A stretch of 32,000 nt of DNA, taken from assembly GCF_000175255.2 (NCBI RefSeq), contig NC_017262.1, positions 60,001-92,000 of the forward strand, in the 5' to 3' direction. Both the position numbers and the translations under genes were made by a program. How positions within the stretch are numbered: position 1 is the first letter of the stretch; each line of letters begins with the position of its first letter. This DNA is from Zymomonas mobilis subsp. mobilis ATCC 10988. GTDB lineage: Bacteria; Pseudomonadota; Alphaproteobacteria; Sphingomonadales; Sphingomonadaceae. Shown here piece by piece: positions 1 to 26,163 of the stretch. A model generated the notes under the pieces. That model ran no database searches, was not told the DNA's origin, and was given only the letters and a program-made list of their open reading frames with translations.

Positions 1-293
1 ATCGTACTATCTATCATATGTTGCCAGTCATCTGTCAGGCCAAGGTCAACGAGAGTTTCAAGAAGAGCGTCCCACACACCCTGTTCTGCCCACCTACGAA
101 ACCGAACATAGACCGAATTCCATTTCCCATAACGTTCATGCATATCTCGCCACGGGCAGCCTGTTCGAAGCACATAAAGCATACCATTGAGAAATAACCG
201 ATTACTTTTGGCGGGACGCGCGCAGCGGCCTCGTTCGCTTGGAAGAAGACCCTGTATTATCTCCCACTCCGCGTCCGTCAGATCTCCTCGCAT
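1..293 (-). CDS. IS5-family transposase orfA, N-terminal part (partial, runs off the window)
   Basis: Same sequence as the 25041..25457 ORF (MRGDLTDAEWEIIQGLLPSERGRCARP...GCPWRDM...). The start codon is at 291-293 on the minus strand. Confidence 0.85.
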   Translation of the reverse strand, partial: MRGDLTDAEWEIIQGLLPSERGRCARPAKSNRLFLNGMLYVLRTGCPWRDMHERYGKWNSVYVRFRRWAEQGVWDALLETLVDLGLTDDWQHMIDST

Positions 294-369
294 CCTATCT
301 ACCCTACAAAACTTGTTCTCAAGTTATCTCTAAAAATCTTAAATTATACCCTTTGTCAACAGAACCTAG
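1..369 (-). mobile_element. Partial copy (about 43 percent) of an ~855-bp IS5-family (IS427-group-like) insertion sequence, cut by the window edge
   Basis: nt 1-371 read identical to 25165-25535. It ends in the terminal inverted repeat CCTTTGTCAACAGAACCTAG (350-369). Confidence 0.85.
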
Positions 370-608
370 TAAAAAATGGTGATATCGAATTAAAAGGTAT
401 TACAGATCCAGCAGATCGTGACAGAGCTTTATTTGATAGTATTGTCGTAGCAGGGACAACAGATCTTTCTGAAAAGAATGTTTTACTCGTGGATGATCTA
501 TATAGATCAGGTGCAACCCTTGATGCATGCTGTCGCGCCCTCAAGAAAAGTACACAAGTAAAAAATATCTGTGTTTTGACAATGACAAAAACTAGGAAGA
601 ACAGATGA
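369..608 (+). pseudogene. C-terminal ~79 codons of a ComF/type-I phosphoribosyltransferase-like gene, 5' part cut off by the IS (ShosT-like candidate)
   Basis: The frame is open from the IS junction: VKNGDIELKGITDPADRDRALFDSIVVAGTTDLSEKNVLLVDDLYRSGATLDACCRALKKSTQVKNICVLTMTKTRKNR*. VLLVDDLYRSGATL is a PRPP-binding loop. The stop TGA (606-608) overlaps the next ATG (605-607). Confidence 0.65.
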
Positions 609-1165
609 CGGTTGTATTCTTATCTGGTTCACGTAGAATTAGCCGCTTAAATGATAAAATTCGCTTTCGTTTACAAAATATCATGAAACAAAATTTTCAG
701 ATTTTTATTGGTGATGCTAATGGTGCAGATAAAGCTATGCAGTCATATCTCGCTGATCAGCACTACCCAAATGTATCTATATACTTTGTAGGGAGTATTT
801 GTCGTAACAATATTGGTAATTGGAATACTAAACAAATAGCAGTAGATAAAAATCTGAAAGGAAGAGCATTCTATACCGAAAAAGACAAAGCAATGGCTGC
901 GGAAGCTGACTTTGGCTTCGTTTTATGGGATGGAATAAGTGAAGGATCGATCAATAATATATTTGAGCTTTTGAATAGTCAAAAAAAAGCAGTAGTCTAT
1001 CTTTCTACACATAAAAAATTTTTTAATATCAAGACAGCTAATGATATTGAAAACCTAATAAACTGCACTGACCCTGAAGCATTATCCAAACTGCAAGGAT
1101 TACGAACTATTCGTAGGCAAATGGAGAAACATAATCTCATGGATCAAGGAAGTTTTCCGATTTAA
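605..1165 (+). CDS. DprA/SLOG-like Rossmann-fold protein (ShosA-like candidate antitoxin)
   Basis: 186 aa with the motif series VVFLSGSR ... IFIGDANGADKAMQSYL ... FGFVLWDGISEGSINNI, which parallels the DprA/SLOG pattern. It is ATGA-coupled to the upstream PRTase fragment and lies in low-GC DNA. Confidence 0.55.
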   Translation: MTVVFLSGSRRISRLNDKIRFRLQNIMKQNFQIFIGDANGADKAMQSYLADQHYPNVSIYFVGSICRNNIGNWNTKQIAVDKNLKGRAFYTEKDKAMAAEADFGFVLWDGISEGSINNIFELLNSQKKAVVYLSTHKKFFNIKTANDIENLINCTDPEALSKLQGLRTIRRQMEKHNLMDQGSFPI

Positions 1166-1310
1166 ATCTAACTTAGTACTTTGGAAAATAATTCCAAAAG
1201 TTCTTATCTAAAGTAGAAAGGCAGAGTTTAGCAGGTATAAATAGTTTTATATTATATCTGATAAAGGTTAATCGAATTTCCATGTTGAGAGCCTCAAGAA
1301 AACCGGCTTT

Positions 1311-1346
1311 TAAAAAAGAGGATATCGCCCCTTTAAAAGGGGCGAT
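1311..1346 (-). terminator. Rho-independent terminator downstream of queE
   Basis: The stem ATCGCCCCTT (1324-1333) pairs with AAGGGGCGAT (1337-1346). On the minus strand it is followed by CTTTTTTA. Confidence 0.7.
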
Positions 1347-1352
1347 CATCCG

Positions 1353-2006
1353 CTATTTCACCCCGATCAATTTATGACTTTGAATAGATAACCGCCATAA
1401 AGGCCGCTGCATCACAAAGGCGATAGCCTTTTGGATATTTTCTTTTTGATATTCGTCATCCATTGGCTGGATCAGATAATGATCGAAATCCAGCTTTTCC
1501 AAAGCCTCAATATCAATGCCTTTTTGTGGCCATACCAGTTTTATTTCATTGCCTTTTTCAAGGATAATCTGGCTTCCTGCCTTGGGACTCATGCAAACCC
1601 AATCAATCGCAGACGGGACAGGCTGCGTTCCATTGGTCTCGATAGCGATTTCAAAAGCCTGATTTTTTAAAGCCAGCAGCAAAGCCTCATCTACTTGTAA
1701 TAATGGCTCACCGCCCGTCAAAACGACAAAAGGCCGAACATATTGATATCGGCTTTCAAGCGCCTCTTTCCACAATCGAATGGCCTGTTCTGCCAATTCT
1801 TCTGCGGTAAATCGTCCGCCATTTTCGCCATCAATACCGACAAAATCAGTATCACAAAAACGGCAAGTCGCCTGTTCACGGTCATCTTCGCGACCATTCC
1901 ACAGATTACAACCGGCAAAGCGAATAAAGACAGCCCGTCTTCCAGCTTGGATACCTTCACCCTGTAACGTCAGGAAACTTTCTTTAACGGCGTAATGACG
2001 GCTCAT
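1353..2006 (-). CDS. queE: 7-carboxy-7-deazaguanine synthase (radical SAM)
   Basis: SFLTLQGEGIQAGRRAVFIRFAGCNLWNGRE...CRFCDTDF is the typical QueE N-terminus and Cys cluster. Confidence 0.9.
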   Translation of the reverse strand: MSRHYAVKESFLTLQGEGIQAGRRAVFIRFAGCNLWNGREDDREQATCRFCDTDFVGIDGENGGRFTAEELAEQAIRLWKEALESRYQYVRPFVVLTGGEPLLQVDEALLLALKNQAFEIAIETNGTQPVPSAIDWVCMSPKAGSQIILEKGNEIKLVWPQKGIDIEALEKLDFDHYLIQPMDDEYQKENIQKAIAFVMQRPLWRLSIQSHKLIGVK

Positions 2007-2956
2007 AACAGACCTTTATCCCCAGAAGGCGCAGCTAAAATCTCCATCGCCTGCCGCAAATTACCTCGGCAGTCAGCCAAGGTCTTTTCTGCTTCTGCAA
2101 TGCTCTGACCCATCGCCACCAGAACAGCTTTCCGAATATCATTTTGGGCAATCACAAGGGCTTTTTCTGCTTTATCCTGATCGACTTTTGCTAATCGACA
2201 CAGCATCAAAACGGCACGTTGTTGCAATTTGACATTGGAGACCCGCATATTGACCATCAGACCACGGCAAACCAGGCCCAGACGCAGCATAATCGCCGTC
2301 GAAAGGGTATTCAAAACGACTTTTTGAGCCGTTCCGGCCTTCATACGGGTGGATCCTGCCACGACTTCGCTTCCAGTCGCAGCTAAAACAGGATGCTCAG
2401 CGGCCTCCAACAAAGCACTATCGGCATTATTGGCAATAGCAATGGTCAAAGCACCCGTTTTTCTGGCCGCTTTAATAGCTTCAACCGTATAGGGCGTTCT
2501 GCCACTGGCTGCGACACCGATCACAACATCGCGACGATCAAGATGCAATGCCTCGACTTCCTGAAGGGCGCGTTCAATATTGTCCTCTGCACCTTCGACA
2601 CTAGCGGCCAAGGCCGTCATGCCTCCCGCCATCATAAAAGCCAGTCTTTCGGATGGCCAATTATAAGTCGGGGTTAATTCAACCCCGTCTTGAACGGCAA
2701 TTCGGCCAGAGGTGCCAGCCCCTACATAAACCAGCCGATTACCGTCCAATAATCTTTCAGCCGCCGCGATACTGGCCGCCGCAATGCGAGAGGATTGATC
2801 AGCAACGGCGGCGACAGCCGCCATCTGACCTTCTAACATGGCCTCAACCGCATATTCGCTAGGCCAGCTATCAAGATCAATATAGCGCGGATCGACCGTT
2901 TCAGTGGACATAGAGGATTGCCTTGTCTGGAATATATCAGGAAAAGAAAGCGTCAT
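2003..2956 (-). CDS. murQ: N-acetylmuramic acid 6-phosphate etherase
   Basis: SIS-domain motif VYVGAGTSGRIAVQDGVELTPTYNWP. There is a 4-nt ATGA overlap with queE. An alternative start is at 2911 (MSTETVD...). Confidence 0.85.
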   Translation of the reverse strand: MTLSFPDIFQTRQSSMSTETVDPRYIDLDSWPSEYAVEAMLEGQMAAVAAVADQSSRIAAASIAAAERLLDGNRLVYVGAGTSGRIAVQDGVELTPTYNWPSERLAFMMAGGMTALAASVEGAEDNIERALQEVEALHLDRRDVVIGVAASGRTPYTVEAIKAARKTGALTIAIANNADSALLEAAEHPVLAATGSEVVAGSTRMKAGTAQKVVLNTLSTAIMLRLGLVCRGLMVNMRVSNVKLQQRAVLMLCRLAKVDQDKAEKALVIAQNDIRKAVLVAMGQSIAEAEKTLADCRGNLRQAMEILAAPSGDKGLL

Positions 2957-3012
2957 TCAAAACGCCTGTTTTCATAAACAGGCCATTTGATTTTATGAAG
3001 TCATAATTTGAA

Positions 3013-3035
3013 AATAACGCATCATCGGCGTTATT
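3013..3035. promoter_or_regulatory. Inverted-repeat motif AATAACG-N7-GGCGTTATT, copy 1, upstream of murQ-queE
   Basis: All 16 fixed positions and the spacing are identical to 17130-17152. Confidence 0.4.
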
Positions 3036-3622
3036 CTTTGCAGCAAGAGAGGCCAATAAGCCCCAAAATAAAGGCTAGTCACGGCTTCGATATTATCAAA
3101 AAGGCATCAATTATAGACTTTTTATCTATAATCTTTTTTTGCTTTTTTTAAAACGGGGCTCTCTTTTTAAACTTCTGAAAAATTTTGACACAAATATGTC
3201 ATTTGATATGAAAGATTACAAAAAAGTAATCATAGAACTTATAAAGCAAGCCAAGATTATTATAACTTATAAGAAATAGACATTTAATAAAAACAGCCTC
3301 ATCCTCAAAGCTCACCTTACGACTTACTTTCATCTTCAAGGCCGATCCTTCGATAACAAGAAGTATTTAATTGTAAAATTTTAAAAATTTAAAAGAAAAA
3401 TAAATTATTTACTTTGATATATTATATCATAATTAGTATTTATAAAGAGTTTTTAAAAATTGTAAAATACCGTTTTGTTGACTATTAAATAGGGTAATAT
3501 TATGCTCTCTTGCTGTTTTAAGGGGGAAGGGCAGTTGCATTTCTTTATATCTATCAAAGTTTCTGAAAAACTGACCCTTTATCCAAGTTGAATATAAAAA
3601 CTGCATCAAAGGGGGGCGTTTA

Positions 3623-5233
3623 ATGCGCTTAATTCGGTCGATATTATTAGGTATGACAGCCATGACGACGCTTGGCATGGCAAGCATGGTTTCCGCAGAA
3701 AAAGCAGATAATAAAACAAAAGACAAAGCCGCAGAAACACAGACGGCGACATCCGCAAGTGATGATGTCTTAAAACCCGCCGAAGCTACCAGCGAAGGCA
3801 GCGTGACGGTCAAGGGGCAGACCATCCGTTATCAGGCAGTTTCTGGAACGTTATTGGTTCATCCGAAAGGCTGGGATGAAACCGTCGAGGATAAAGATAA
3901 AACACAACCTCGCGCCACAATGTCCTATACCGCCTATTTTAAAAAAGACGTGCCATCGTCACAAAGACCGGTCGTTTTTTTCTATAATGGCGGGCCGGGT
4001 TCTGCTTCGGTCTGGCTGCATATGGGGTCTTTCGGGCCCAAACGTATTGTTGTTCCCGATCATGAACATAGCGAAGGCGCACCTTACCGTCTGGTCAATA
4101 ACGACTACAGCTTGATGGATGTCGCGGATGTCGTCTTTATTGATGCCCCTGCGACCGGTTTTGGCCGGGTCGCTGGCAAGGATAAGGCCAAAGCCTTCTT
4201 TGGTGTCGATCAGGATGCTTATGCTTTTTGTGAATTCATCAAAAGTTTTCTTGGTAAATTCAATCGCTGGAACAGCCCGAAATATCTATTCGGTGAAAGC
4301 TACGGCACGCCCCGTTCTGCTGTTTTGTCGAATATGCTGGAAAACGACAACTCGATTGATTTTAACGGCGTTATCCTGCTGTCCCAGATATTAAACTTCA
4401 CACTGGATTCCGATTTTCCGAATACCAATCCGGGGGCAGATCAGGCTTTCATCACCAATCTTCCAACCTATGCTGCAACGGCTTGGTATCATAACCGTTT
4501 ACAGGGGCAGAAACCGGCCGATTTGGAAAAATTCCTTCGGGAAGTCGAATATTTCGCTACCACAGAATATGCGATGGCGTTACAGCAAGGCTCTGCACTT
4601 GATCCTTCAAGAAAACAGGCTATTGCCCAGAAATACAGCCAATATACCGGTATTCCGGTGGATTATGTGCTGAAAGCTGATTTGCGGTTAAATGGCGGCC
4701 AATTTACACAAATGCTGCAAGGCGGCGATATCACGACGGGTCGTCTTGATACGCGTTTTTCAGGGCCTTCTCTTGATCCTCTCGATAAAGAATCGGGCTA
4801 TGATCCACAAAGCTCGGCTTTGTCTTCAGCCTATGTCTCGGCCTTTAATGATTATTCTTTGAACCAGCTCCATTTTGGGCAGGGTCGCGAATATAAATCT
4901 ATGGTCAATTTCCCCGGTGGCTGGGATTTCAAACATCGTTCGCCCAGCGGTGGCGTGGTGCCGTGGGTTACCAATATGATGCCTGATCTGGCGGCGGCCA
5001 TGACGACCAATCCTAAATTAAAGGTAATGGTCGCAGGTGGTTATTTCGATCTGGCAACGCCTTACTATCAGGGCTGGTATGAAATGCACCATCTCCCGAT
5101 TAGAAAGAGCCTCGAACAGAATCTTGAATATCACTATTATAAATCAGGCCATATGGTTTACGTGAATGAAGAGTCTTTGAAATTGCTACATGACGATGTT
5201 TCTTCTTTCATCCGTCGTAGCTATCAGCCCTAA
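3623..5233 (+). CDS. Secreted S10-family serine carboxypeptidase-like peptidase
   Basis: N-terminal signal peptide, plus YNGGPGSASVWLHMG and the GESYG catalytic-serine motif. Confidence 0.8.
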   Translation: MRLIRSILLGMTAMTTLGMASMVSAEKADNKTKDKAAETQTATSASDDVLKPAEATSEGSVTVKGQTIRYQAVSGTLLVHPKGWDETVEDKDKTQPRATMSYTAYFKKDVPSSQRPVVFFYNGGPGSASVWLHMGSFGPKRIVVPDHEHSEGAPYRLVNNDYSLMDVADVVFIDAPATGFGRVAGKDKAKAFFGVDQDAYAFCEFIKSFLGKFNRWNSPKYLFGESYGTPRSAVLSNMLENDNSIDFNGVILLSQILNFTLDSDFPNTNPGADQAFITNLPTYAATAWYHNRLQGQKPADLEKFLREVEYFATTEYAMALQQGSALDPSRKQAIAQKYSQYTGIPVDYVLKADLRLNGGQFTQMLQGGDITTGRLDTRFSGPSLDPLDKESGYDPQSSALSSAYVSAFNDYSLNQLHFGQGREYKSMVNFPGGWDFKHRSPSGGVVPWVTNMMPDLAAAMTTNPKLKVMVAGGYFDLATPYYQGWYEMHHLPIRKSLEQNLEYHYYKSGHMVYVNEESLKLLHDDVSSFIRRSYQP

Positions 5234-5256
5234 ATTTTTTATCCCATTTTGAAGTA

Positions 5257-5292
5257 AAAGAAGCGACCTCAACGGGGTCGCTTCTTTTTTTT
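5257..5292 (+). terminator. Rho-independent terminator of the peptidase gene
   Basis: A perfect 12-13 bp stem, AAAAGAAGCGACC / GGTCGCTTCTTTT, with a 7-nt loop and a T-run to 5292. Confidence 0.8.
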
Positions 5293-5355
5293 GAAGAGAA
5301 TCTTTTTACGCTACGATTTTTCATTTTACGATTTTTTGAAAAAATTTCACGTCAG

Positions 5356-5381
5356 GGAACAGATGTTAAAGATTAGGCGTT
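5356..5381 (+). promoter_or_regulatory. Candidate sigma-EcfG (alphaproteobacterial general stress response) promoter
   Basis: GGAAC (5356-5360), then 17 nt, then CGTT (5378-5381). It sits about 45 nt upstream of the ATG of a GlsB/YeaQ-family stress gene. Confidence 0.5.
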
Positions 5382-5425
5382 TTATACACAAATATTGACA
5401 ATTCTTTTTTTAAGGGAGTTTGGTA

Positions 5426-5674
5426 ATGGGGCTCATTTCTTGGCTTATCGTCGGCGGTATTATTGGATGGCTCGCTGGACTTATTATGAAAGGCAGCGGC
5501 AGCGGCGTTTTTCTTAATATTATTATCGGTGTTGTCGGGGCTTCTTTGGGGGGCTTTATCTTCAACCGTGGTGATATTGGCGATGTCGGCCTGACCCTGC
5601 AAAGTTTTCTGGTCTCATTGATCGGTGCCGTTATTTTGTTGGCGGTGATCAATTTCTTTAAATCACGCAACTGA
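5426..5674 (+). CDS. GlsB/YeaQ/YmgE-family stress-response membrane protein
   Basis: MGLISWLIVGGIIGWLAGLIMKG...GVVGASLGGFIF, a Gly-rich protein of about 3 TM segments. The SD AAGGGAG lies 7 nt before the ATG at 5426; the ORF track starts at a TTG at 5420. Confidence 0.8.
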   Translation: MGLISWLIVGGIIGWLAGLIMKGSGSGVFLNIIIGVVGASLGGFIFNRGDIGDVGLTLQSFLVSLIGAVILLAVINFFKSRN

Positions 5675-5782
5675 CCCCATGTGATCTTTCAGGTCAGGAT
5701 GGCTCAAATAGCCTGATATCTGGATGCTTATTTTGGACTTGAAAGGGTGAGGCTGAAAACACGGCCTCACCCTAAAATATAT

Positions 5783-6904
5783 TTATTGCACGGCCATTTT
5801 TTTGGAAAAGACAGCAACACCAGCCAACAAAGCTGCGATCAAGAAAAATGATATTTTTAAACCCACAACATTGGCAATAAAACCAATGGCAATCGGGCCC
5901 GCCAAAACACCCATATAGCCAATGGTGGTCACCGCTGAGATCGCGAGATGGCTCGGCATCACATTTTGCCGTCCGGCAACACTATACACAACCGGAACGA
6001 TATCGGCACATCCCAAACCGATTAAGGCATAACCAATGAAAGTCGCGGGGGTGTAAGGTATAAAAATAACCGCCAAATAACCCGCCATAGCCAAAAGGCT
6101 ACCGAAAAAAACCGTTTTAACATTGCCTAATTTGGCAATAATTTTGTTCCCGAATAACCGTCCCGTTGTCATCATTGTTGCATAACCGGCATAGCCCCAA
6201 CCGGCTTGTTCCGGTGGTAATTTCCTGATCGAAGTGAGGAAAACACCGCCCCAATCAAGCACAGCGCCTTCCGCCAGAAAAGCAATGCAACAGATAATGC
6301 TCAAAATCCAAACCATGCCTTTCGGTATAGCAATACCTGCCGCACTACCGGGTTCGCCTTTATCAGGCAGTAAATCCTTCCAGAAGATCGCTAAAATCAA
6401 AAGAAGCAAGGCCGAAGCCATCATACCAGCCGTAAGCGGACTAAAGGATTTGGAAAAGACCAAGGCCAATCCGGCTGACCCCGCTGCGCCACCAATGCTA
6501 TATAAGGCATGAAAGCCTGAAATAAGGGGACGCTGAGCGCGTTTCTCGACAATAACCGATTGAATATTCATGGCGGCATCAATGGCACCGACCGATGCCC
6601 CAACGATCAATAGACTGCCTCCCAAAAGGATGGCGGAGGATAAAGTCGCCAGAAAAGGGACCGCTATCGCGGTAATAATCACGCCTGTCGTAATAACTGC
6701 ACGACACCCAAAGCGGTTCGCCATACTGCCCGCTAAAGGCAAAGAGAACAGCGCTCCTAATCCCAAACATAAAAGCAGATAACCAAGCTGTCCGTCAGAA
6801 ATAGCCGTATGGATTTTGACAAAAGGAATTAACGCCCCCCATGTCGCAATGGCGCATCCTAAAAGAAAGAATATCGCCGCCGTCCCGTTCCTCGCATTTT
6901 CCAT
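5783..6904 (-). CDS. MFS transporter
   Basis: 373 aa and about 11-12 hydrophobic segments, with typical MFS composition. Confidence 0.7.
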   Translation of the reverse strand: MENARNGTAAIFFLLGCAIATWGALIPFVKIHTAISDGQLGYLLLCLGLGALFSLPLAGSMANRFGCRAVITTGVIITAIAVPFLATLSSAILLGGSLLIVGASVGAIDAAMNIQSVIVEKRAQRPLISGFHALYSIGGAAGSAGLALVFSKSFSPLTAGMMASALLLLILAIFWKDLLPDKGEPGSAAGIAIPKGMVWILSIICCIAFLAEGAVLDWGGVFLTSIRKLPPEQAGWGYAGYATMMTTGRLFGNKIIAKLGNVKTVFFGSLLAMAGYLAVIFIPYTPATFIGYALIGLGCADIVPVVYSVAGRQNVMPSHLAISAVTTIGYMGVLAGPIAIGFIANVVGLKISFFLIAALLAGVAVFSKKMAVQ

Positions 6905-7254
6905 GGCAAATCCTCAAAATATTTTTGTTATTATTTTTTACGCCGTCATTTTTATGAATGGATAGGAAGCCCCGTTAAAAGAATCTCGCTTCTTTTGTCC
7001 CTATCTTCTGAAAGCACGCCTTGAATAAAAAGGCGATAGGGTAACTGCCTTTTGGATATAAAGGCCTCACATCTCCTAAATCGGAAAAAGCTTCATTCCC
7101 GATCATTAGCCTTTTTCAGCCATCGACATTCCAAGCTATAAAAACAAGCCTCAAAAGATAATTTTATAAAATGATAAATAAAAATTCATCTTTGGTGCAA
7201 TGCGATGGAAATATTTCGAAAGATAAACGTTAAAAAGTAAAATATAATAAACAA

Positions 7255-7286
7255 CCTTTGATATCGATCTGCACGATATTCAAAGG
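7255..7286. promoter_or_regulatory. Imperfect inverted repeat immediately upstream of the dehydrogenase operon
   Basis: CCTTTGATATCG (7255-7266), then 7 nt, then CGATATTCAAAGG (7274-7286). The arms are complementary apart from a 1-nt bulge. Confidence 0.3.
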
Positions 7287-7300
7287 GATCAAGCTGTAGG

Positions 7301-7906
7301 GTGTTCTTGATGATGGGCTCTTCTCCTCCGAAAGGCAGGCCGATTTCGGCCTTTTTTTCTTTTCCTTGGTGCCGCCGCCATATTTTGACAACCGGATTAT
7401 CTGTTGTCGCTCTTTCGGTGACGGCGGATATCGCTTCTAACGCCTCATCTTCTCCGCTTTCGTCTGCGGATGTTCTTCATTTTATGAAATTATCGCTTTG
7501 TCTGACAGATCGGAAAACGCTTGATCCGGTGCTTGGCAAAGCGCTTTTTTCTAAATTAACCGACAATAATCCAAAACGCCGGACACAGCTTGATCAGCTT
7601 CTTGCTCTTTTCAATCGGCAGACATGGGATAATGCTAATCACTTCGTCAAAGAAGCGGTCAAAGAAAATCCAGATGCACCACCACTTATCAGGGATATTC
7701 TACACGGATGGTATCGCGGTATCGTCGATAACAAAGTCGTCGTTTACCGTTCGGCCATGATGTTTTCTCTGACCCGTAATATTCTCTATCCCAAAACCTA
7801 TGCCAATGGCGATTTATTCTATTGGACAACGCGCCCGCCAGAAGTGCCCCTTCCCAAAGCACAGCCCGCTATGCAGCCGGACGTTCCCGAAACTCTGGGA
7901 CAATAA
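7301..7906 (+). CDS. Small (gamma) subunit of a membrane-bound FAD sugar dehydrogenase, Tat-signal-like N-terminus
   Basis: It has the position and size of gluconate 2-dehydrogenase subunit-3-family proteins and carries an RRHILTTGLSVVALS twin-arginine-like signal. The start is uncertain (GTG 7301, ATG 7310 or 7313). Confidence 0.6.
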   Translation: MFLMMGSSPPKGRPISAFFSFPWCRRHILTTGLSVVALSVTADIASNASSSPLSSADVLHFMKLSLCLTDRKTLDPVLGKALFSKLTDNNPKRRTQLDQLLALFNRQTWDNANHFVKEAVKENPDAPPLIRDILHGWYRGIVDNKVVVYRSAMMFSLTRNILYPKTYANGDLFYWTTRPPEVPLPKAQPAMQPDVPETLGQ

Positions 7907-7924
7907 AAGCAGAAGGTATAACAG

Positions 7925-9562
7925 ATGACATCCAGCAACGATCTTTCTGCCGATATTGTGATTGTCGGTTCCGGTGTCGCCGGTAGCAGCATCGCCAAAG
8001 AATTGGCGAGTACAGGGGCATCGGTCATCGTCCTTGAGGCAGGGCCCCGTATTGACAGGCAACATATCCTCGATAATTGCCGAAATACGGTCAATAAAAA
8101 CAAATATGACGAGCCTTATCCGCCATCCCCTTGGTCAATGCATCCGCCCGACCAAAGCACCCCTAACGCTTATCTCCATACCACCGGCCCCGATGCACAG
8201 GCCTATCAGCAAAGCTATCTCCGTATTCTTGGCGGCACAACATGGCATTGGTCAGCCTGCGCATGGCGTTATCTGCCCTCTGATTTTGAATTACGGTCAC
8301 GCTATGGGGTAGGGCGCGACTGGGCGTTAAAATATGATGATCTCGAGCCTTTTTACTATCAGGCCGAAAGCATGATGGGCGTTTGCGGGCCTGATCCCAA
8401 GGTTGAAGACCTTGGCTCACCCCGCCGCCAACCTTATCCGATGGAAGCCTTGCCGCTTTCCTATGCGGCAGAACAGTTTAAAAAACTGATTGATAACCGC
8501 ACAGCCTATCGTGTGGTGCATGAACCACAGGCGCGGAATACCCGCCGCTATGACAATCGTCCGGTCTGCGAAGGCAATAATAACTGTATGCCGCTTTGCC
8601 CTATCGGTGCGATGTATAACGGTATTCATACCGTGCTTCATGCCGAAGCCGCAGGGGCGCGCTTTATTGACAATGCCGTGGTTTATAAAATCGAAACCGA
8701 TACCTCTAATAAAAAGGTCACGGCTGTTCACTATTATGACCCTGACAAACACAGTCATAAGGTCACGGGACGTATTTTTGTTATCGCGGCGCATTGCATC
8801 GAATCCGCCAAATTATTGCTCCTTTCTGCCGATGAAAAAAATCCAAACGGCATCGCCAATAGTTCGGATCAAGTAGGCCGGAATATGATGGATCATACCG
8901 GCGTGCAGGTCACTTTCATGAGCGGTCTGGATTCTCTTTGGTGTGGCAGAGGGCCTCTCGAAACCAATGTCATCGACAGCTTCCGAGATGGATCATGGCG
9001 GAATGAAAGGGGTGCTTATCTGGTGCATATGGTGGATGATAACCAGATCGACCTCGCCACGGCTTTAGCCATCGACAAAGGCTATGTCGGTAAAGACCTC
9101 GAAGATGAAATCCGCTATGGGGCATCACATCTGGTGCGTTTGTTCAGCCATAATGAAGGGATGCCGGATCCCGATAACCGTTTAACGCTCAGCAAAACCC
9201 ATAAAGACGTTCTCGGGATTCCCCATCCCGAAGTTTATTATAAATTGCCGGATTATACGGTGAGAAGCTGCGATCACTCCCGCAAGGTATTTAGGGAAAT
9301 CATGGGGCTGATGAAAGGCTCTGATCCACGCTGGACGCCGGGCTATTTTCCCCAAGACCATCCAGCGGGCAGCACCATCATGGGGCATGATCCCAAAGAT
9401 TCTGTCGTTGACGGATATAACCGGACACATGACCACGAAAATCTGTTTATCGCCAGTTCCGGCGTATTCGCTTCTATGGGAACGGGTAACATTACCCTGA
9501 CCGTGGCTGCCTTGGCGTTACGGGTAGCCGATACGCTGAAAAAAGAGATATATCATGGCTAA
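7925..9562 (+). CDS. GMC-family FAD-dependent dehydrogenase large subunit (gluconate 2-/sorbitol-dehydrogenase type)
   Basis: N-terminal ADIVIVGSGVAGSSIAKELASTGASVIVLEAG FAD fold, GMC-type C-terminus, 545 aa. Confidence 0.8.
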   Translation: MTSSNDLSADIVIVGSGVAGSSIAKELASTGASVIVLEAGPRIDRQHILDNCRNTVNKNKYDEPYPPSPWSMHPPDQSTPNAYLHTTGPDAQAYQQSYLRILGGTTWHWSACAWRYLPSDFELRSRYGVGRDWALKYDDLEPFYYQAESMMGVCGPDPKVEDLGSPRRQPYPMEALPLSYAAEQFKKLIDNRTAYRVVHEPQARNTRRYDNRPVCEGNNNCMPLCPIGAMYNGIHTVLHAEAAGARFIDNAVVYKIETDTSNKKVTAVHYYDPDKHSHKVTGRIFVIAAHCIESAKLLLLSADEKNPNGIANSSDQVGRNMMDHTGVQVTFMSGLDSLWCGRGPLETNVIDSFRDGSWRNERGAYLVHMVDDNQIDLATALAIDKGYVGKDLEDEIRYGASHLVRLFSHNEGMPDPDNRLTLSKTHKDVLGIPHPEVYYKLPDYTVRSCDHSRKVFREIMGLMKGSDPRWTPGYFPQDHPAGSTIMGHDPKDSVVDGYNRTHDHENLFIASSGVFASMGTGNITLTVAALALRVADTLKKEIYHG

Positions 9563-10997
9563 AACACGCTCTTTCTTCGCCCAATTCCGGCATATATGGG
9601 CGATAACAACAGGCTTCGGCTTGGTCATGTCGGCGGCGTCCTATGCAGCAACCACGGATACTAGCGACCTTCTTCAAAAAGGCGAATATCTAGCCAAAGC
9701 AGCGGATTGCGTCGCTTGTCATACCGCCCCTAATGGCAAGGCTTTTGCAGGTGGCCTTGCGATCACTTCACCTATGGGGGACATCCTTTCAACCAATATC
9801 ACACCGGATAATGAAACCGGCATAGGTCACTATAGCGAAGATGATTTTGCCCGTGCGTTGCAACGCGGTATCCGAAAAGACGGTGGCCATCTTTATCCGG
9901 CCATGCCCTATACGGCTTATGCTGGCCTTAACAAGGCAGACATCCACGCACTTTATCTCTATTTTATGAAATCGGTTACGCCGGTTTTACAAAAGAACCA
10001 GCCGACAAAACTGGACTTTCCTTTCAATATCCGCGCTTTGATGATGGGCTGGAATCTTCTGTTCTTGAATGACAAGCCTGCCAAAACTGATTTCGAGCAT
10101 TTGTCTGGTTTAGAAAGAGGCCGCTATCTCGCAGATACGCTTGAACATTGCAGCACCTGCCATTCGCCTCGCAATTTTTTGATGGCTGAAAAAAAATCCG
10201 GTTATCTCGGTGGCAGCCCTCTAGGGGGATGGTATGCGCCCAATATCACCTCCAGCCTGAATAGCGGCATCGGTCATTGGAGCGAAGAAGAGCTAGTCAC
10301 TTATTTCAAAACCGGAAAAGTCACTGGAAAAGCACGGGCAGGGGGCGGCATGGCCGAAGCTGTCAGCAACAGCCTAAGTCATCTCAGCGATCAAGATTTG
10401 CACGATCTGGCGCGCTATATCAAACAGGTTCCCGCTATCAATGATCGCCATGATTCACGTCCACGCGATCAATATAGCGCCCCTGTAGTGACAACTGATC
10501 TTAGAAGTGGCGAAACCATTCGGGTTGATCGCCCGATAGCTATGGATGGTGCTGCGGTTTATGACAATAACTGCGCCAGTTGTCATGGCGGTGATGGCAA
10601 TGGCAGCCCCGATCAGCATATTCCTTCTTTATATAACAATAGCGTGATCGGATCAGCTCAAGCCAATAATCTGGTGATGACTATTCTAAACGGCGTGCAG
10701 CGTAAAATAGACGGGCAGGAAGTGTTTATGCCTTCTTTTGGGGATAAATCACTGGTGCAGCACCTCTCCGATAAAGACATCGCCAGCCTTGCCAATTATG
10801 TTACCGGACGTTTTGGACGGGGTGATGCCCATTTAAAAGCGGCCGATATTGCAACCATTCGGCAAGGCGGCGCAAAACCATTTTTGGTTCGCTATATTTC
10901 GGTGCTGATGCTGACAGGCGGCTTGGGCTTCCTGCTTGTTCTTTCGCTCATTTACCGTTTTTTCAAAAAAACAGACAGGAAAAGCGCGCAGAGCTGA
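9555..10997 (+). CDS. Triheme cytochrome c subunit of the dehydrogenase
   Basis: Three CxxCH motifs (CVACH, CSTCH, CASCH), a signal peptide and a C-terminal hydrophobic anchor. It overlaps the large-subunit gene by 8 nt. Confidence 0.85.
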   Translation: MAKTRSFFAQFRHIWAITTGFGLVMSAASYAATTDTSDLLQKGEYLAKAADCVACHTAPNGKAFAGGLAITSPMGDILSTNITPDNETGIGHYSEDDFARALQRGIRKDGGHLYPAMPYTAYAGLNKADIHALYLYFMKSVTPVLQKNQPTKLDFPFNIRALMMGWNLLFLNDKPAKTDFEHLSGLERGRYLADTLEHCSTCHSPRNFLMAEKKSGYLGGSPLGGWYAPNITSSLNSGIGHWSEEELVTYFKTGKVTGKARAGGGMAEAVSNSLSHLSDQDLHDLARYIKQVPAINDRHDSRPRDQYSAPVVTTDLRSGETIRVDRPIAMDGAAVYDNNCASCHGGDGNGSPDQHIPSLYNNSVIGSAQANNLVMTILNGVQRKIDGQEVFMPSFGDKSLVQHLSDKDIASLANYVTGRFGRGDAHLKAADIATIRQGGAKPFLVRYISVLMLTGGLGFLLVLSLIYRFFKKTDRKSAQS

Positions 10998-11010
10998 CAG
11001 GTCGCTGACG

Positions 11011-11032
11011 GGAAGACGCCTAGGCGTCTTCC
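11011..11032. terminator. Perfect 22-nt palindrome between convergent genes, likely terminator of the dehydrogenase operon
   Basis: GGAAGACGCCTAGGCGTCTTCC. It overlaps the last codons and stop of the LacI-family gene, and CTTCTCT follows on the plus strand. Confidence 0.45.
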
Positions 11033-12144
11033 TTCTCTGCCACATTAGCTAGAAAGGGCGGGCCCGCAGAATCTCGAATAATCAAGGCATGATCGAGTTC
11101 GACATTCCTGATTTCTTCGGTATTCCAACCATTTTCCAACAGATTAAGGATAATATCGGTCGCGGTATAAGCCATGGCCGATATCGGCTGGCGCATCGTT
11201 GTAATCCGTGGCCAAACAATAGAAGCCAGCTGACTATCATCGAAACCAACTACCGATAATTGACGCGGCACTGCAATCCCATGCTCATGGGCAGCCTGAA
11301 CAATACCGGCGGCCATGTCGTCATTGGATGAAAAGACGGCAGTTGGTCGTGGGTTCAGGGCAAATATTTTCCGTGCTGCTTCCAAACCACTGGCGAAACG
11401 GAAATCACCCGCAATCACCAGATCGGGATCAATCGGGATACCGGCGCTTTGCAAAGCATAACAATAGCCTTCAAAACGGGCGTTACTGGCCGGATGGACT
11501 GGATTGCCTCGTAAAAAAGCAATCCGTCGATGCCCCAGACCTAACAGATAACGGGTCATCTCTCTGGCGGCGATCATATCCTTGATGGCGACACAAGGCG
11601 AACCGGGGCGTGGCTCGGTGCCTGCCACGCGGACATAGGGAACGCCGCTTTGATCCAATTCATCCATAATTTCGGGATCATTGGACAAAGGCGGGGTTAA
11701 AATCACACCGGCCAGACCAGAACTGCGAATAATGGCAATCATTTTGCCATGAAATTCTTTGAAATTTTCAACCGGAAACATCAACAGACGATAAGGCTCG
11801 CCGCGTAAACGGTCTAAAGCACCGGTCTGGATATTAACGACATAATTCGGACTTGGGTTTTCGTAAAACAGGCCGATCATATAAGATTGGCGACCTGCCA
11901 GACTTCTTGCGGCCATATTGGGATGATAATTCAGTTTATGGGCTGCTTGTAAAACCCGTTCACGCATTTCCGGCCTGACATTGGGTTCGTTATTCAAAAC
12001 GCGTGACACGGTTTTGATCGAAGCCCCCGACATGGCGGCTACATCACGGATAGTAACCATTGGCATCCGTTTACAGGTGCCAGAGGCAGAATCTGTGGTT
12101 TTTGCAGCTTGGTAAACGCTGTCATTTTTAGAGCGGGAAGTCAC
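11020..12144 (-). CDS. LacI-family transcriptional regulator
   Basis: HTH VTIRDVAAMSGASIKTVSRVLNNEPNVRPEMRERVLQAAHKLNYHPN followed by a periplasmic-binding-fold domain. The likely true start is at 12066 or 12060. Confidence 0.85.
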   Translation of the reverse strand: MTSRSKNDSVYQAAKTTDSASGTCKRMPMVTIRDVAAMSGASIKTVSRVLNNEPNVRPEMRERVLQAAHKLNYHPNMAARSLAGRQSYMIGLFYENPSPNYVVNIQTGALDRLRGEPYRLLMFPVENFKEFHGKMIAIIRSSGLAGVILTPPLSNDPEIMDELDQSGVPYVRVAGTEPRPGSPCVAIKDMIAAREMTRYLLGLGHRRIAFLRGNPVHPASNARFEGYCYALQSAGIPIDPDLVIAGDFRFASGLEAARKIFALNPRPTAVFSSNDDMAAGIVQAAHEHGIAVPRQLSVVGFDDSQLASIVWPRITTMRQPISAMAYTATDIILNLLENGWNTEEIRNVELDHALIIRDSAGPPFLANVAEKEDA

Positions 12145-24679: not shown

Positions 24680-25457
24680 TAGGTTTTGTTGACAAAGGAA
24701 GGTAACCACAATTTTACGGCCGCGAGATGAAGGAAGGCGAGAAAAGATTTTCTGGTTTTGTCATAGCGTGTGGCAATGCGCCTGAACTGCTTTAGCTTAT
24801 TAAACATCCGCTCAATACGATTACGATCTTTGTAGTGCTGGAGATTATAAGGAATAGGCTTTTTTCGATTGGAACGAGGCGGGATAACAGGAAGAATGCC
24901 TCGAAAAAGCAGTTTTTCGCGTAACCTATCGCTATCATATCCTTTATCAGCGAGAAAACAGTGGGGTGTTGTGACAGGGATATCTATCAAGCTATCAGCG
25001 CCAGAATAATCAGAGACCTCACCACCGGTTAGTGCGAAAGCTAGAGGGCGGCCTTGACCATCGGAACGGGCGTGGATCTTGCTCGTAAAGCCTCCGCGAC
25101 TGCGACCAAAGCCTTCCTTATACGTCCCCCTTTTGCGCCAGCCGCTTGGCTGTGGGCGCGAATAATCGTACTATCTATCATATGTTGCCAGTCATCTGTC
25201 AGGCCAAGGTCAACGAGAGTTTCAAGAAGAGCGTCCCACACACCCTGTTCTGCCCACCTACGAAACCGAACATAGACCGAATTCCATTTCCCATAACGTT
25301 CATGCATATCTCGCCACGGGCAGCCTGTTCGAAGCACATAAAGCATACCATTGAGAAATAACCGATTACTTTTGGCGGGACGCGCGCAGCGGCCTCGTTC
25401 GCTTGGAAGAAGACCCTGTATTATCTCCCACTCCGCGTCCGTCAGATCTCCTCGCAT
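24679..25457 (-). CDS. IS5-family DDE transposase, orfA plus orfB joined by a probable programmed -1 frameshift
   Basis: orfA is 25041..25457 (DUF4096-like N-terminus). The -1 frame is open from the GCAAAAGGGGGA run (25125-25136) and reads RKRGTYKEGFGRSRGGFTSKIHARSDGQGRPLAFALTGGEVSDY...ADKGYDSD...YKDRNRIERMFNKLKQFRRIATRYDK. The stop TAG lies in the terminal CTAG. Confidence 0.85.
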
Positions 25458-25533
25458 CCTATCTACCCTACAAAACTTGTTCTCAAGTTATCTCTAAAAA
25501 TCTTAAATTATACCCTTTGTCAACAGAACCTAG
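24679..25533 (-). mobile_element. Complete IS5-family (IS427-group-like) insertion sequence, ~855 bp
   Basis: The terminal inverted repeats CTAGGTTTTGTTGACAAAGG (24679-24698) and CCTTTGTCAACAGAACCTAG (25514-25533) match at 19 of 20 positions. CTAG is present at both junctions, consistent with a TA duplication in a CTAG target. It holds a two-frame transposase. Confidence 0.9.
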
Positions 25534-26163
25534 TATCCACTCTGGTTTAATTCCAATTTTTTGAGCTAATTTTTTGATAGGTTCAGGCATAACTTTATTT
25601 TGGTCAATAGATAGCTTATACTCTTCTTCAGAAGATTTCGTGTCGATATCTGATTCAAATATTCCATTCTTATCCAAAAAAGAAAACATTATACTACAGA
25701 TAGTACTCTCACATTTTCTGATAATATCTAAAAGATACTTTGCAAAACTTTTATAGCTTTTGCTACCCAATCGATTGGGTATTTTTTCTGGTGCTATAAT
25801 TAAAACAAAATTATTTTTAATATGAGCATTTGCGGTGATATCTAATCCGCGATGAACAATAGCATTTCGGATTTCATGTATATATAAATAATTAGATTTT
25901 CCATCTGGAAAATCTTCAAATGAAAACTGAGAGTGCAATGTTTTTTGTAAATCATCATCTTTAAATTTTTTTTGCTCAAAGATAAGATCTACTGCTGAAA
26001 TCAAATTTATAAAATAATTAGAATAGTGAATCCTCATATCTATACAATCACCTGTAGAAAGAGGCGTTCGAAATTTTAAGGCTGTACGAAGTGCTGTCTT
26101 TCTAGCTGTCATATACCATAAGAATGATTGTAATATTTTTTGATCTTCGCTGCTTAAAACCAT
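25534..26163 (-). pseudogene. 5' part (210 codons) of a lone HEPN-like (RNxxxH motif) protein gene, interrupted by the IS
   Basis: The ORF-track protein (226 aa) runs into the IS after ...IGIKPEWI. It contains YIHEIRNAIVHRGLD (R-N-x3-H). The gene is about 30 percent GC by eye and has a strong SD, AGGAGA. Confidence 0.5.

Follow-up and report, generated by a model that had tools for sequence, protein, structure and literature searches.

At the left end of the 32,000-nucleotide stretch of Zymomonas mobilis subsp. mobilis ATCC 10988 DNA analysed here (the window) lie the remains of a two-gene cassette: the C-terminal fragment of a type-I phosphoribosyltransferase (PRTase) gene, cut by an insertion sequence (IS), and directly downstream of it the gene for a 186-aa protein with a predicted SLOG fold. 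We found that the IS split the PRTase gene, and that the SLOG gene is intact, with the same sequence as in strains that have the whole cassette. By analogy with characterized pairs, and from the way in which the two genes are kept and lost, we propose that the cassette is probably a toxin-antitoxin or abortive-infection module of an unnamed minimal PRTase-SLOG family, distinct from ShosTA and from PsyrTA/RqlHI.

Pairs of a PRTase toxin and a DprA-like antitoxin are experimentally established (PMC11961720, PMC12961424, PMC4670107, PMC9122126). ShosTA (E. coli APEC O1), which has also been reported as the DprA-PRTase system of P2-like prophages, consists of ShosT, a 424-aa protein with an N-terminal pyrophosphatase-like hydrolase and a C-terminal PRTase (PMC11961720), and ShosA (PDB 8zva), whose solved construct, residues 1-313, comprises a SAM domain and a DprA Rossmann domain, while its C-terminal tail is disordered or unstable (PMC11961720). 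The toxicity of ShosT requires the aspartates D331/D332 of its phosphoribosyl pyrophosphate (PRPP) site, and purine metabolism and DNA replication are disturbed. ShosA neutralizes ShosT without binding it, through single-stranded DNA binding, dimerization and RecA, and the DprA-PRTase pair of P2-like prophages protects against T7 and lambda.

The IS insertion and the IS-free alleles

The original prediction had described an IS-truncated type-I PRTase gene coupled to an intact DprA/SLOG-like gene, and everything that it read from the sequence was confirmed, namely the PRTase fragment, its PRPP loop, the ATGA overlap of the two genes, the motifs of the downstream protein and the AT-richness of the locus. 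The IS-free alleles that it suggested looking for in related strains exist. In one of them (L052, GCA_001563365.1), the intact pair occupies 9429-10004 and 10001-10561, and from window position 364 on the contig shows 99.3% identity to the window. Across 366-1165, the two sequences differ at two sites, each a synonymous change within the PRTase fragment, and the 186-aa gene shows no difference. The 186-aa protein was counted on 263 Z. mobilis contigs, the intact 191-aa PRTase on 259 and the truncated PRTase on 3. Current annotation calls the 186-aa protein (ZMO2014) "uncharacterized" or "hypothetical" and the 191-aa PRTase (ZMO2015) a "ComF family protein", and our literature search found no paper on either.

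The undisrupted PRTase gene reads ...AAT TAC CTA GTA AAA..., and the IS sits in the CTAG at codon 112. The PRPP-binding loop lies downstream of this position, which precludes a functional PRTase. The protein sequence of the fragment in the window is identical to residues 112-191 of the intact PRTase (P0123), and the other half survives as an N-terminal remnant of 119 aa (P0124; WP_252507286.1/TQL26782.1; 3 contigs) that equals ZMO2015 residues 1-112 followed by GFVDKGR and a stop. At this junction, ...VLINYL runs into the GFVDKGR tail, which is translated from the left end of the IS, CTAGGTTTTGTTGACAAAGGAAGGTAA, in the codons CTA GGT TTT GTT GAC AAA GGA AGG TAA, and the PRTase frame therefore continues to the left of the IS, as the original prediction required. 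Both junction contigs come from the same sequencing run, SRR066225: L054, which is 100% identical to window 342-12006, and L151. When the missing N-terminal half was sought elsewhere in the window by tblastn, as a possible product of IS-mediated rearrangement, nothing significant was found outside 264-608.

The features that the argument draws on are listed below, with coordinates in the window and strand.

1..366, minus strand: right-hand end of an IS, 366 bp of an 849-bp IS5-family element, the rest of which lies to the left of the window
293 to 2, minus strand: N-terminus of the IS transposase (DUF4096, 2e-29; NF033580 transpos_IS5_3, 117.5 bits against a cut-off of 110, first 97 residues)
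350..366, minus strand: terminal inverted repeat of the IS, GGTTCTGTTGACAAAGG, with 3 copies in the window and 0 expected by chance
366..608, plus strand: C-terminal PRTase fragment of 80 codons and a stop, a pseudogene fragment corresponding to residues 112-191 of the ZMO2015 orthologue
594..599, plus strand: AGGAAG, a ribosome-binding site read from the sequence, 5 nt before the start codon of the 186-aa gene and within the PRTase coding sequence
605..1165, plus strand: intact gene of the 186-aa SLOG/mini-DprA protein (ZMO2014), the probable antitoxin, with a core at about 1-143 and three helices at 145-180
1324..1346, no strand: perfect GC-rich palindrome, ATCGCCCCTTTTAAAGGGGCGAT, lying where the 186-aa gene and queE converge, with a minus-strand terminator score (for queE)
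24682..25530, minus strand: complete second copy of the same IS, 849 bp, which defined the IS ends, length and CTAG target

Window positions 1-365 match 25165-25529, at the right end of the complete copy, with 100% identity. This copy has 17-bp inverted repeats, GGTTYTGTTGACAAAGG, with CTAG at both flanks, and encodes a 259-aa transposase with DUF4096 and DDE_Tnp_1 domains. With an IS5-type DDE transposase, inverted repeats and a short target duplication, the element belongs to the IS5 family. CTAG stands next to either end of the full copy, and it also borders each half of the PRTase gene. The original prediction would have restored the gene by removing the IS and one TA; we place the IS end at 366, where its final C is also the first base of the codon CTA, and the duplication of the CTAG target is TA or CTAG according to where the ends of the IS are placed. 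The insertion is recent, since the IS copies are identical and the fragment shows no non-synonymous decay.

The fragment at 366-608 translates to LVKNGDIELKGITDPADRDRALFDSIVVAGTTDLSEKNVLLVDDLYRSGATLDACCRALKKSTQVKNICVLTMTKTRKNR and a stop, with the PRPP loop VLLVDDLYRSGATL inside it, and holds no in-frame start that would yield at least 40 aa. Its TGA (606-608) overlaps the ATG at 605 of the 186-aa open reading frame (ORF), so that 605-608 reads ATGA, and the ORF carries the motifs SGSR, GDANGAD and WDGISEGS. The G+C content is 32-36% over 300-1350, against 43-53% in queE, the SIS gene and beyond. Judging from its sequence, the palindrome at 1324-1346 may serve as a shared terminator of the 186-aa gene and queE. 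A promoter scan of 1-1500 gave 4 sites against 4.5 expected from shuffled sequence, and thus no excess. We regard these structural facts of the locus as virtually certain.

Other copies of these sequences add several observations. The second IS copy (24682-25530) abuts an AT-rich stretch (28% GC) with a 226-aa ORF (25483-26163, minus strand) that has no Pfam match and whose 3' end runs into the IS; this ORF is probably a further foreign gene that the IS truncated at a CTAG site. In an otherwise 100% identical assembly (L147/L150; GCA_006716005.1, VFOI01000001.1), the N-terminal PRTase half and the IS lead directly into window position 10293, where a CTAG lies in a cytochrome c gene; this is either a 9.9-kb IS-adjacent deletion (window 367-10292) or an assembly collapse. 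Such a deletion would take the C-terminal PRTase half, the SLOG gene, queE and seven further genes and, if real, would be a case of an orphan antitoxin lost after the death of its toxin.

Folds and relatives of the two proteins

No model in Pfam, PADLOC or NCBIfam matches the 186-aa protein. It has 859 homologues at E<=1e-3, nearly all of 181-187 aa and none of them named, and its family profile, run against 1.84 billion cluster representatives (50% identity), retrieved 2243 clusters at E<=1e-3, of which 1461 reached <=1e-10 and 381 reached <=1e-30. Across 50 homologues, the mean column identity is 63% and 35 residues are invariant, including S7-G8-S9-R10, G36-D37-A38-x-G40-A41-D42, R67/N69/G71/W73 and W108-D109-G110-x-S112; the family is basic, with a median isoelectric point of 9.1. 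AlphaFold2 predicts a beta-alpha Rossmannoid core at residues 3-143 followed by helices at 145-180 (predicted local distance difference test score, pLDDT, 91.7; predicted template-modelling score 0.86). The best Foldseek match of this model in the PDB was ShosA 8zva (E 2.4e-4, probability 1.0, template-modelling score 0.54, 10% identity), followed in order by the TRPM MHR domains, the DprA proteins of H. pylori and S. pneumoniae and the SLOG domain of ThsA; the Foldseek probability was 1.0 for ShosA, DprA and TRPM MHR and 0.77 for ThsA. Among the viral models of BFVD, a "DprA-like DNA processing chain A" matched at 3e-7, and matches to DUF2493/YAcAr SLOG proteins were numerous.

Searches with hidden Markov models (HMMs) gave echoes of the same kinship among the 50 relatives. 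DNA_processg_A appeared below threshold in 32 of them (best 0.0014), YAcAr and YpsA in 8 each, none at the Pfam threshold, and the PADLOC ShosA model in 7 (best 8e-5). The window protein itself gave no match to the models that define the DprA family (DNA_processg_A, and TIGR00732 at its curated threshold). An hhalign comparison of its family with E. coli Smf, in which GDANGAD aligned with SGLARGID, was not significant (probability 0.15), and the family profile returned only noise from the sequences of the PDB. Since the sequence-only link to DprA and ShosA failed, we assigned the fold from predicted structure and from these echoes. On the predicted model, with its Rossmannoid fold and glycine-rich loops, the protein is a member of the SLOG superfamily, a SLOG-fold "mini-DprA" outside the DprA and ShosA sequence families. 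The DprA/SLOG fold foreseen in the original prediction is thus borne out by predicted structure, where ShosA is the top PDB match, and not by profile, where the protein has no Pfam match and DNA_processg_A stays sub-threshold in its relatives; of the two Pfam families named in advance, DNA_processg_A is not found in the 186-aa protein and Pribosyltran (PF00156) is found in the PRTase fragment, marginally for a piece of 80 aa (E 6e-6; 26.1 bits, just under the cut-off of 26.3).

The PRTase family comprises 647 homologues of a narrow 189-195 aa, which the source databases call "ComF family" or "amidophosphoribosyltransferase". The PRPP loop has the invariant residues D154, D155, S159, G160 and T162 (D154/D155 in 47 homologues). 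The predicted structure (pLDDT 91.0) is a single type-I PRTase core preceded by three beta-strands (residues 11-39), and its best fold match in the PDB is H. pylori ComF (7p0h, 3e-6), followed by PyrR, PurR, APRT and OPRT. All 50 matches listed, of 188 at E<=1e-3, are of the PRTase fold, and ShosT is absent among these 50. A full-length relative scores 27.5 bits against PF00156, above the cut-off, and the domain is precomputed on most homologues, as befits a type-I PRTase. Against PDB sequences, the PRTase profile found generic APRT/HPRT at about 4e-3 and no ShosT. Both ORFs are real genes rather than chance frames, because the 186-aa protein has 859 homologues and the PRTase 647, and both models reach a pLDDT of about 91.

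The original prediction had placed the pair in or near ShosTA. If it were a true, divergent ShosTA member, the toxin would be a pyrophosphatase-PRTase and the DprA-like antitoxin would act through single-stranded DNA and RecA. The gene order is indeed the same, with the PRTase gene first and the DprA/SLOG-fold gene second, and both systems are mobile or prophage cargo. The PRPP acidic pair is present as well, as VLLVDDLYRSGATL in the fragment and as the invariant D154/D155 of the family, which is a likeness of motif and does not imply a like role; among PDB folds, the 186-aa protein comes closest to the Rossmann domain of ShosA, and the PRTase is matched by the PADLOC ShosT model at 3.5e-8 (the fragment) to 6e-13. 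However, ShosT is a two-domain protein of 424 aa, whereas the PRTase here has a single domain and 191 aa, less than half that size, and lacks the N-terminal hydrolase/pyrophosphatase. Likewise, the 186-aa protein consists of a core and three short helices and has no SAM domain, unlike the 313-residue ShosA construct, and the PADLOC ShosA model gives no match to it at E<=1. The ShosT match of full-length PRTases (4e-10 to 6e-13) covers about 128-133 of 237 profile positions, and PsyrT scores level with it (4e-12, profile positions 537-686 of 689), in both cases over the PRTase core only; in the fragment, the same two models give 3.5e-8 and 7.9e-7. Domain architecture, size, the ShosA HMM and the fold ranking all argue against ShosTA membership, which we consider very unlikely, and the evidence favours what the original prediction had offered as an alternative, a divergent, undescribed variant.

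The pair differs in a similar manner from the other systems with which it can be compared. In PsyrTA/RqlHI, the toxic moiety is also a C-terminal PRTase domain, the part matched here by PsyrT, and RqlI combines a DprA-like region with a C-terminal helix-turn-helix (HTH), as the plasmid variants described below combine SLOG with a TIGR02684 HTH; yet a RecQ-like helicase of about 500 aa precedes the PRTase and RqlI has 400 aa, whereas there is no helicase here. The competence proteins ComF/ComFC and DprA are close in fold: for the PRTase, 7p0h is the top match, and for the 186-aa protein, DprA (4ljl/3uqz) comes next after ShosA and TRPM. However, TIGR00201 comF gives the PRTase 36.4 bits against a cut-off of 233.55 (4.7e-5 for the fragment) and aligns over positions 45-190 only, which leaves the ComF model without a match at its N-terminus. 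H. pylori ComFC has a zinc-finger module at its N-terminus, in place of which the PRTase here has its three beta-strands, and P0123 has just one Cys in its first 40 residues. The 186-aa protein is also without the flanking domains of DprA, and the cassette is found in mobile-element contexts rather than in competence operons. By these comparisons, the logic of the cassette is probably ShosTA/PsyrTA-like, yet it is without the defining features of either, and it is not ComF. In the literature, we found no description of a minimal toxin-antitoxin pair of a ComF-like PRTase and a SLOG protein, within a search that does not exclude an earlier in-silico mention of the clade.

Linkage, one-sided loss and genomic contexts

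Two samples were used to follow the pair across genomes: 50 genome loci retrieved with the 186-aa protein and, to remove the ascertainment bias of a SLOG-based sample, the best 80 PRTase loci from a PRTase-profile search of metagenome contigs. The SLOG loci span at least 8 phyla and include Alpha- and Gammaproteobacteria, Nitrospinota, Nitrospirota, Desulfobacterota, Planctomycetota, Acidobacteriota and candidate phyla. A PRTase gene lies directly upstream of the SLOG gene in 45 of the 50, typically ending 4 nt into its partner, and no third conserved gene surrounds the cassette in these loci, where nothing recurs beyond close relatives. Starting from the PRTase, the SLOG gene is present in all 78 loci with room for it downstream; where the SLOG ORF could be fully assessed, it was complete in 64 of 64 cases (168-250 aa), and the stop/start overlap was 4 nt in 49 of these 64 loci.

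Loss is confined to one side. The SLOG gene occurs without a PRTase in three loci (L003, beside ParA/Rep-like genes, L031 and L048), and independently broken PRTase genes lie beside it in five lineages, this window included. In Pararhizobium CP132335, the PRTase gene has a stop codon at Y88 (L056 7432-8004) and in its sister CP132336 the gene is intact (L057 7432-8004), with the same 186-aa protein in both. A nonsense codon interrupts the PRTase in L071, another falls within the PRPP loop in L082/L083 (LLIDDL-stop-RSGATL), and L018 carries a frameshift. Since the PRTase in these loci is never found without its partner, while the partner is found alone or beside a broken PRTase, the pattern is as a toxin-antitoxin pair predicts. 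The cassette is a compact, mobile two-gene operon in which the putative toxin is never alone and orphan antitoxins are tolerated; in linkage, overlap and one-sided loss, it resembles a toxin-antitoxin or conflict module, as originally predicted.

The contexts of the cassette are largely those of mobile DNA. In E. coli, 8 of 5426 complete genomes and 2 IMG/VR contigs have a homologous pair (36%/34% identity over the full length; PRTase WP_032083446.1) as cargo of a P2-like prophage, located between gpD and ogr (L143 7001-8148, strain NCTC11121, genome positions 2151367-2152514; L061/L062 4980-6127); it is annotated "ComF family protein" and "hypothetical protein", and the PADLOC models do not recognize it. 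A Hok/Gef gene lies just past ogr at this locus. A tblastn search of GenBank phage genomes (INPHARED) with the 186-aa protein gave no match. SLOG homologues were found on 101 PLSDB plasmid records (Klebsiella 22, Mesorhizobium 19, Agrobacterium 12), 55 of them conjugative. On the two plasmids whose loci were examined, A. tumefaciens pAt1 (L144 3414-4867) and X. phaseoli pXAM48 (L145 3414-4846), a 196-aa PRTase (38% identical) overlaps a partner of 281-288 aa, in which the SLOG core (42% identical, residues 1-155) is followed by a C-terminal HigA-type HTH (TIGR02684, 83-91 bits against a cut-off of 53.7); because of this HTH, the annotation pipeline PGAP names the partner "addiction module antidote protein". 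One further locus lies in a defence island with HEPN/MNT, HigB, ImmA/IrrE-type, ubiquitin-like E1/E2 and transposase genes, and the Pararhizobium sister loci both adjoin a serine resolvase, one with HEPN_AbiV and the other with IS3 copies.

Several points weigh against reading the cassette as a toxin-antitoxin module. The attribution of toxicity, neutralization and phage defence to the family draws on analogy and on genomic asymmetry, and the SLOG assignment rests on a predicted structure together with sub-threshold HMM echoes. The 80 PRTase loci are the closest relatives, so unpaired PRTases could exist at a greater distance, and some of the disruptions in metagenome assemblies could be sequencing errors. 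That the N-terminal PRTase half lies beside this particular copy of the IS is something that we infer from the junction contigs and a shared 2.02-Mb contig, since P0124 and the QueE variant of the window both occur on a contig of 2,024,562 bp. Finally, some loci, such as L059, lie among housekeeping genes, and the PRTase and SLOG domains are joined in a single-chain fusion (P0378), which fits a fused toxin-antitoxin and a cooperative enzyme pair equally.

The last two points also suit a non-toxic cooperative pair, a mini ComF and DprA that would work on single-stranded DNA or in nucleotide salvage, in which case the IS hit a dispensable accessory function. The place of two competence proteins, ComF and DprA, among the best fold matches and the NCBI name "ComF family protein" are in line with this explanation. 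However, the comF score falls far below its cut-off (36 against 233 bits) with the N-terminal part of ComF unmatched, and the spread of the cassette is patchy over many phyla, at low GC and in plasmid, prophage-cargo and defence-island contexts. Moreover, loss is strictly one-sided, the partner often being without an intact PRTase and never the reverse, and the plasmid partner is fused to a HigA-type antidote HTH. Thus, we consider a cooperative pair unlikely.

A survey of architectures in the SLOG clade (P0378, P0302, P0306, P0255, P0336, P0361, P0377) revealed further combinations. P0302 is a NADAR-SLOG fusion (YbiA 2b3w, 7e-20; NADAR 8bau, 7e-4), P0306 has an additional N-terminal domain for which no match was found, and some members carry C-terminal extensions of 200-500 aa with Rx4H motifs, which by eye are possibly HEPN-like; a PDB sequence search did not confirm this. 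Such extensions would suit a nucleotide-signalling conflict system, in which the PRTase makes a phosphoribosyl signal, the SLOG protein is its sensor or regulator and the IS removed the generator. SLOG domains sense nucleotides, as in ThsA (PMC11204291). The YpsA/YAcAr (DUF2493) branch of SLOG, whose members are also among the fold matches, likewise includes small stand-alone proteins paired with PRTases in conflict systems (PMC6459960), although no member of the present family reaches the Pfam threshold for YpsA or YAcAr. However, the 186-aa protein has no effector domain, with about 40 residues of helices past its core, and the HEPN reading of its relatives is unconfirmed. Orphan sensors beside dead generators would also be functionless, yet they are kept intact. 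A signalling system is therefore, in our estimate, quite improbable.

Two stretches of low GC content were also noted around the cassette. To the left of the intact pair in L052, after a TonB-dependent receptor gene, lie a 250-aa ORF (8181-8933) and a 108-aa ORF (7721-8047), neither with a Pfam, NCBIfam or PHROG match, and the GC content at L052 7500-7950 is 18-23%; the low-GC island of Z. mobilis may be larger than the two-gene cassette. In the window, the intergenic region at 3000-3600, between the SIS-domain gene and a peptidase S10 gene, has 25-29% GC and holds short ORFs only.

Proposed function and significance

On the toxin-antitoxin reading, which we prefer, the 191-aa PRTase would be a toxic PRPP-dependent effector, by analogy with ShosT and RqlH, both of which need the aspartates of the PRPP site to be toxic. 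It would use PRPP to make or attach a phosphoribosyl product, upsetting nucleotide or DNA metabolism and halting growth. The basic 186-aa SLOG protein would be the antitoxin, most likely in a ShosA-like manner, through binding to nucleic acid or to a nucleotide ligand. The balance would tip towards the toxin when a phage arrives or a plasmid is lost, and the cassette would thus serve in plasmid or prophage addiction, in abortive infection or in both. With the toxin gene dead, as in this window, the surviving SLOG gene would be a harmless orphan antitoxin.

A different chemistry can be drawn from the fusions of the SLOG clade. NADAR reverses guanine ADP-ribosylation. Since the clade is fused to NADAR (P0302), to a PRTase (P0378) and to HTH and other C-terminal modules, the pair may work by reversible phosphoribosylation, like DarT-DarG/NADAR, rather than by purine-pool disturbance and RecA-assisted repair. 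The PRTase would then move phosphoribose from PRPP to a nucleobase of DNA or RNA, or make a toxic nucleotide, and the SLOG partner would directly recognize the adduct and then remove or sequester it. We put this forward as a speculative option with a small chance of being right.

As a toxin-antitoxin module, the cassette would belong to a recently validated class of phage defence, the PRTase toxin with a DprA-like antitoxin, whose killing chemistry is still unresolved (PMC12961424). The knock-out by an IS is in itself an ordinary event, and the family exposed by it is compact. Free of the pyrophosphatase, helicase and SAM domains of its relatives, a pair of single-domain proteins, each about 190 aa long, may offer the simplest model of a PRTase effect and its neutralization by a SLOG/DprA core. 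The cassette is common, on plasmids of Klebsiella, Agrobacterium and Mesorhizobium and in P2-like prophages of E. coli, and is missed by the PADLOC models searched; the member in the E. coli prophage makes the family experimentally tractable, and the natural toxin knock-outs, by the IS here and by nonsense codons elsewhere, are ready-made controls. Z. mobilis is used industrially to produce ethanol, and in this species ZMO2015/ZMO2014 would form a toxin-antitoxin or defence locus that varies from strain to strain and has escaped annotation.

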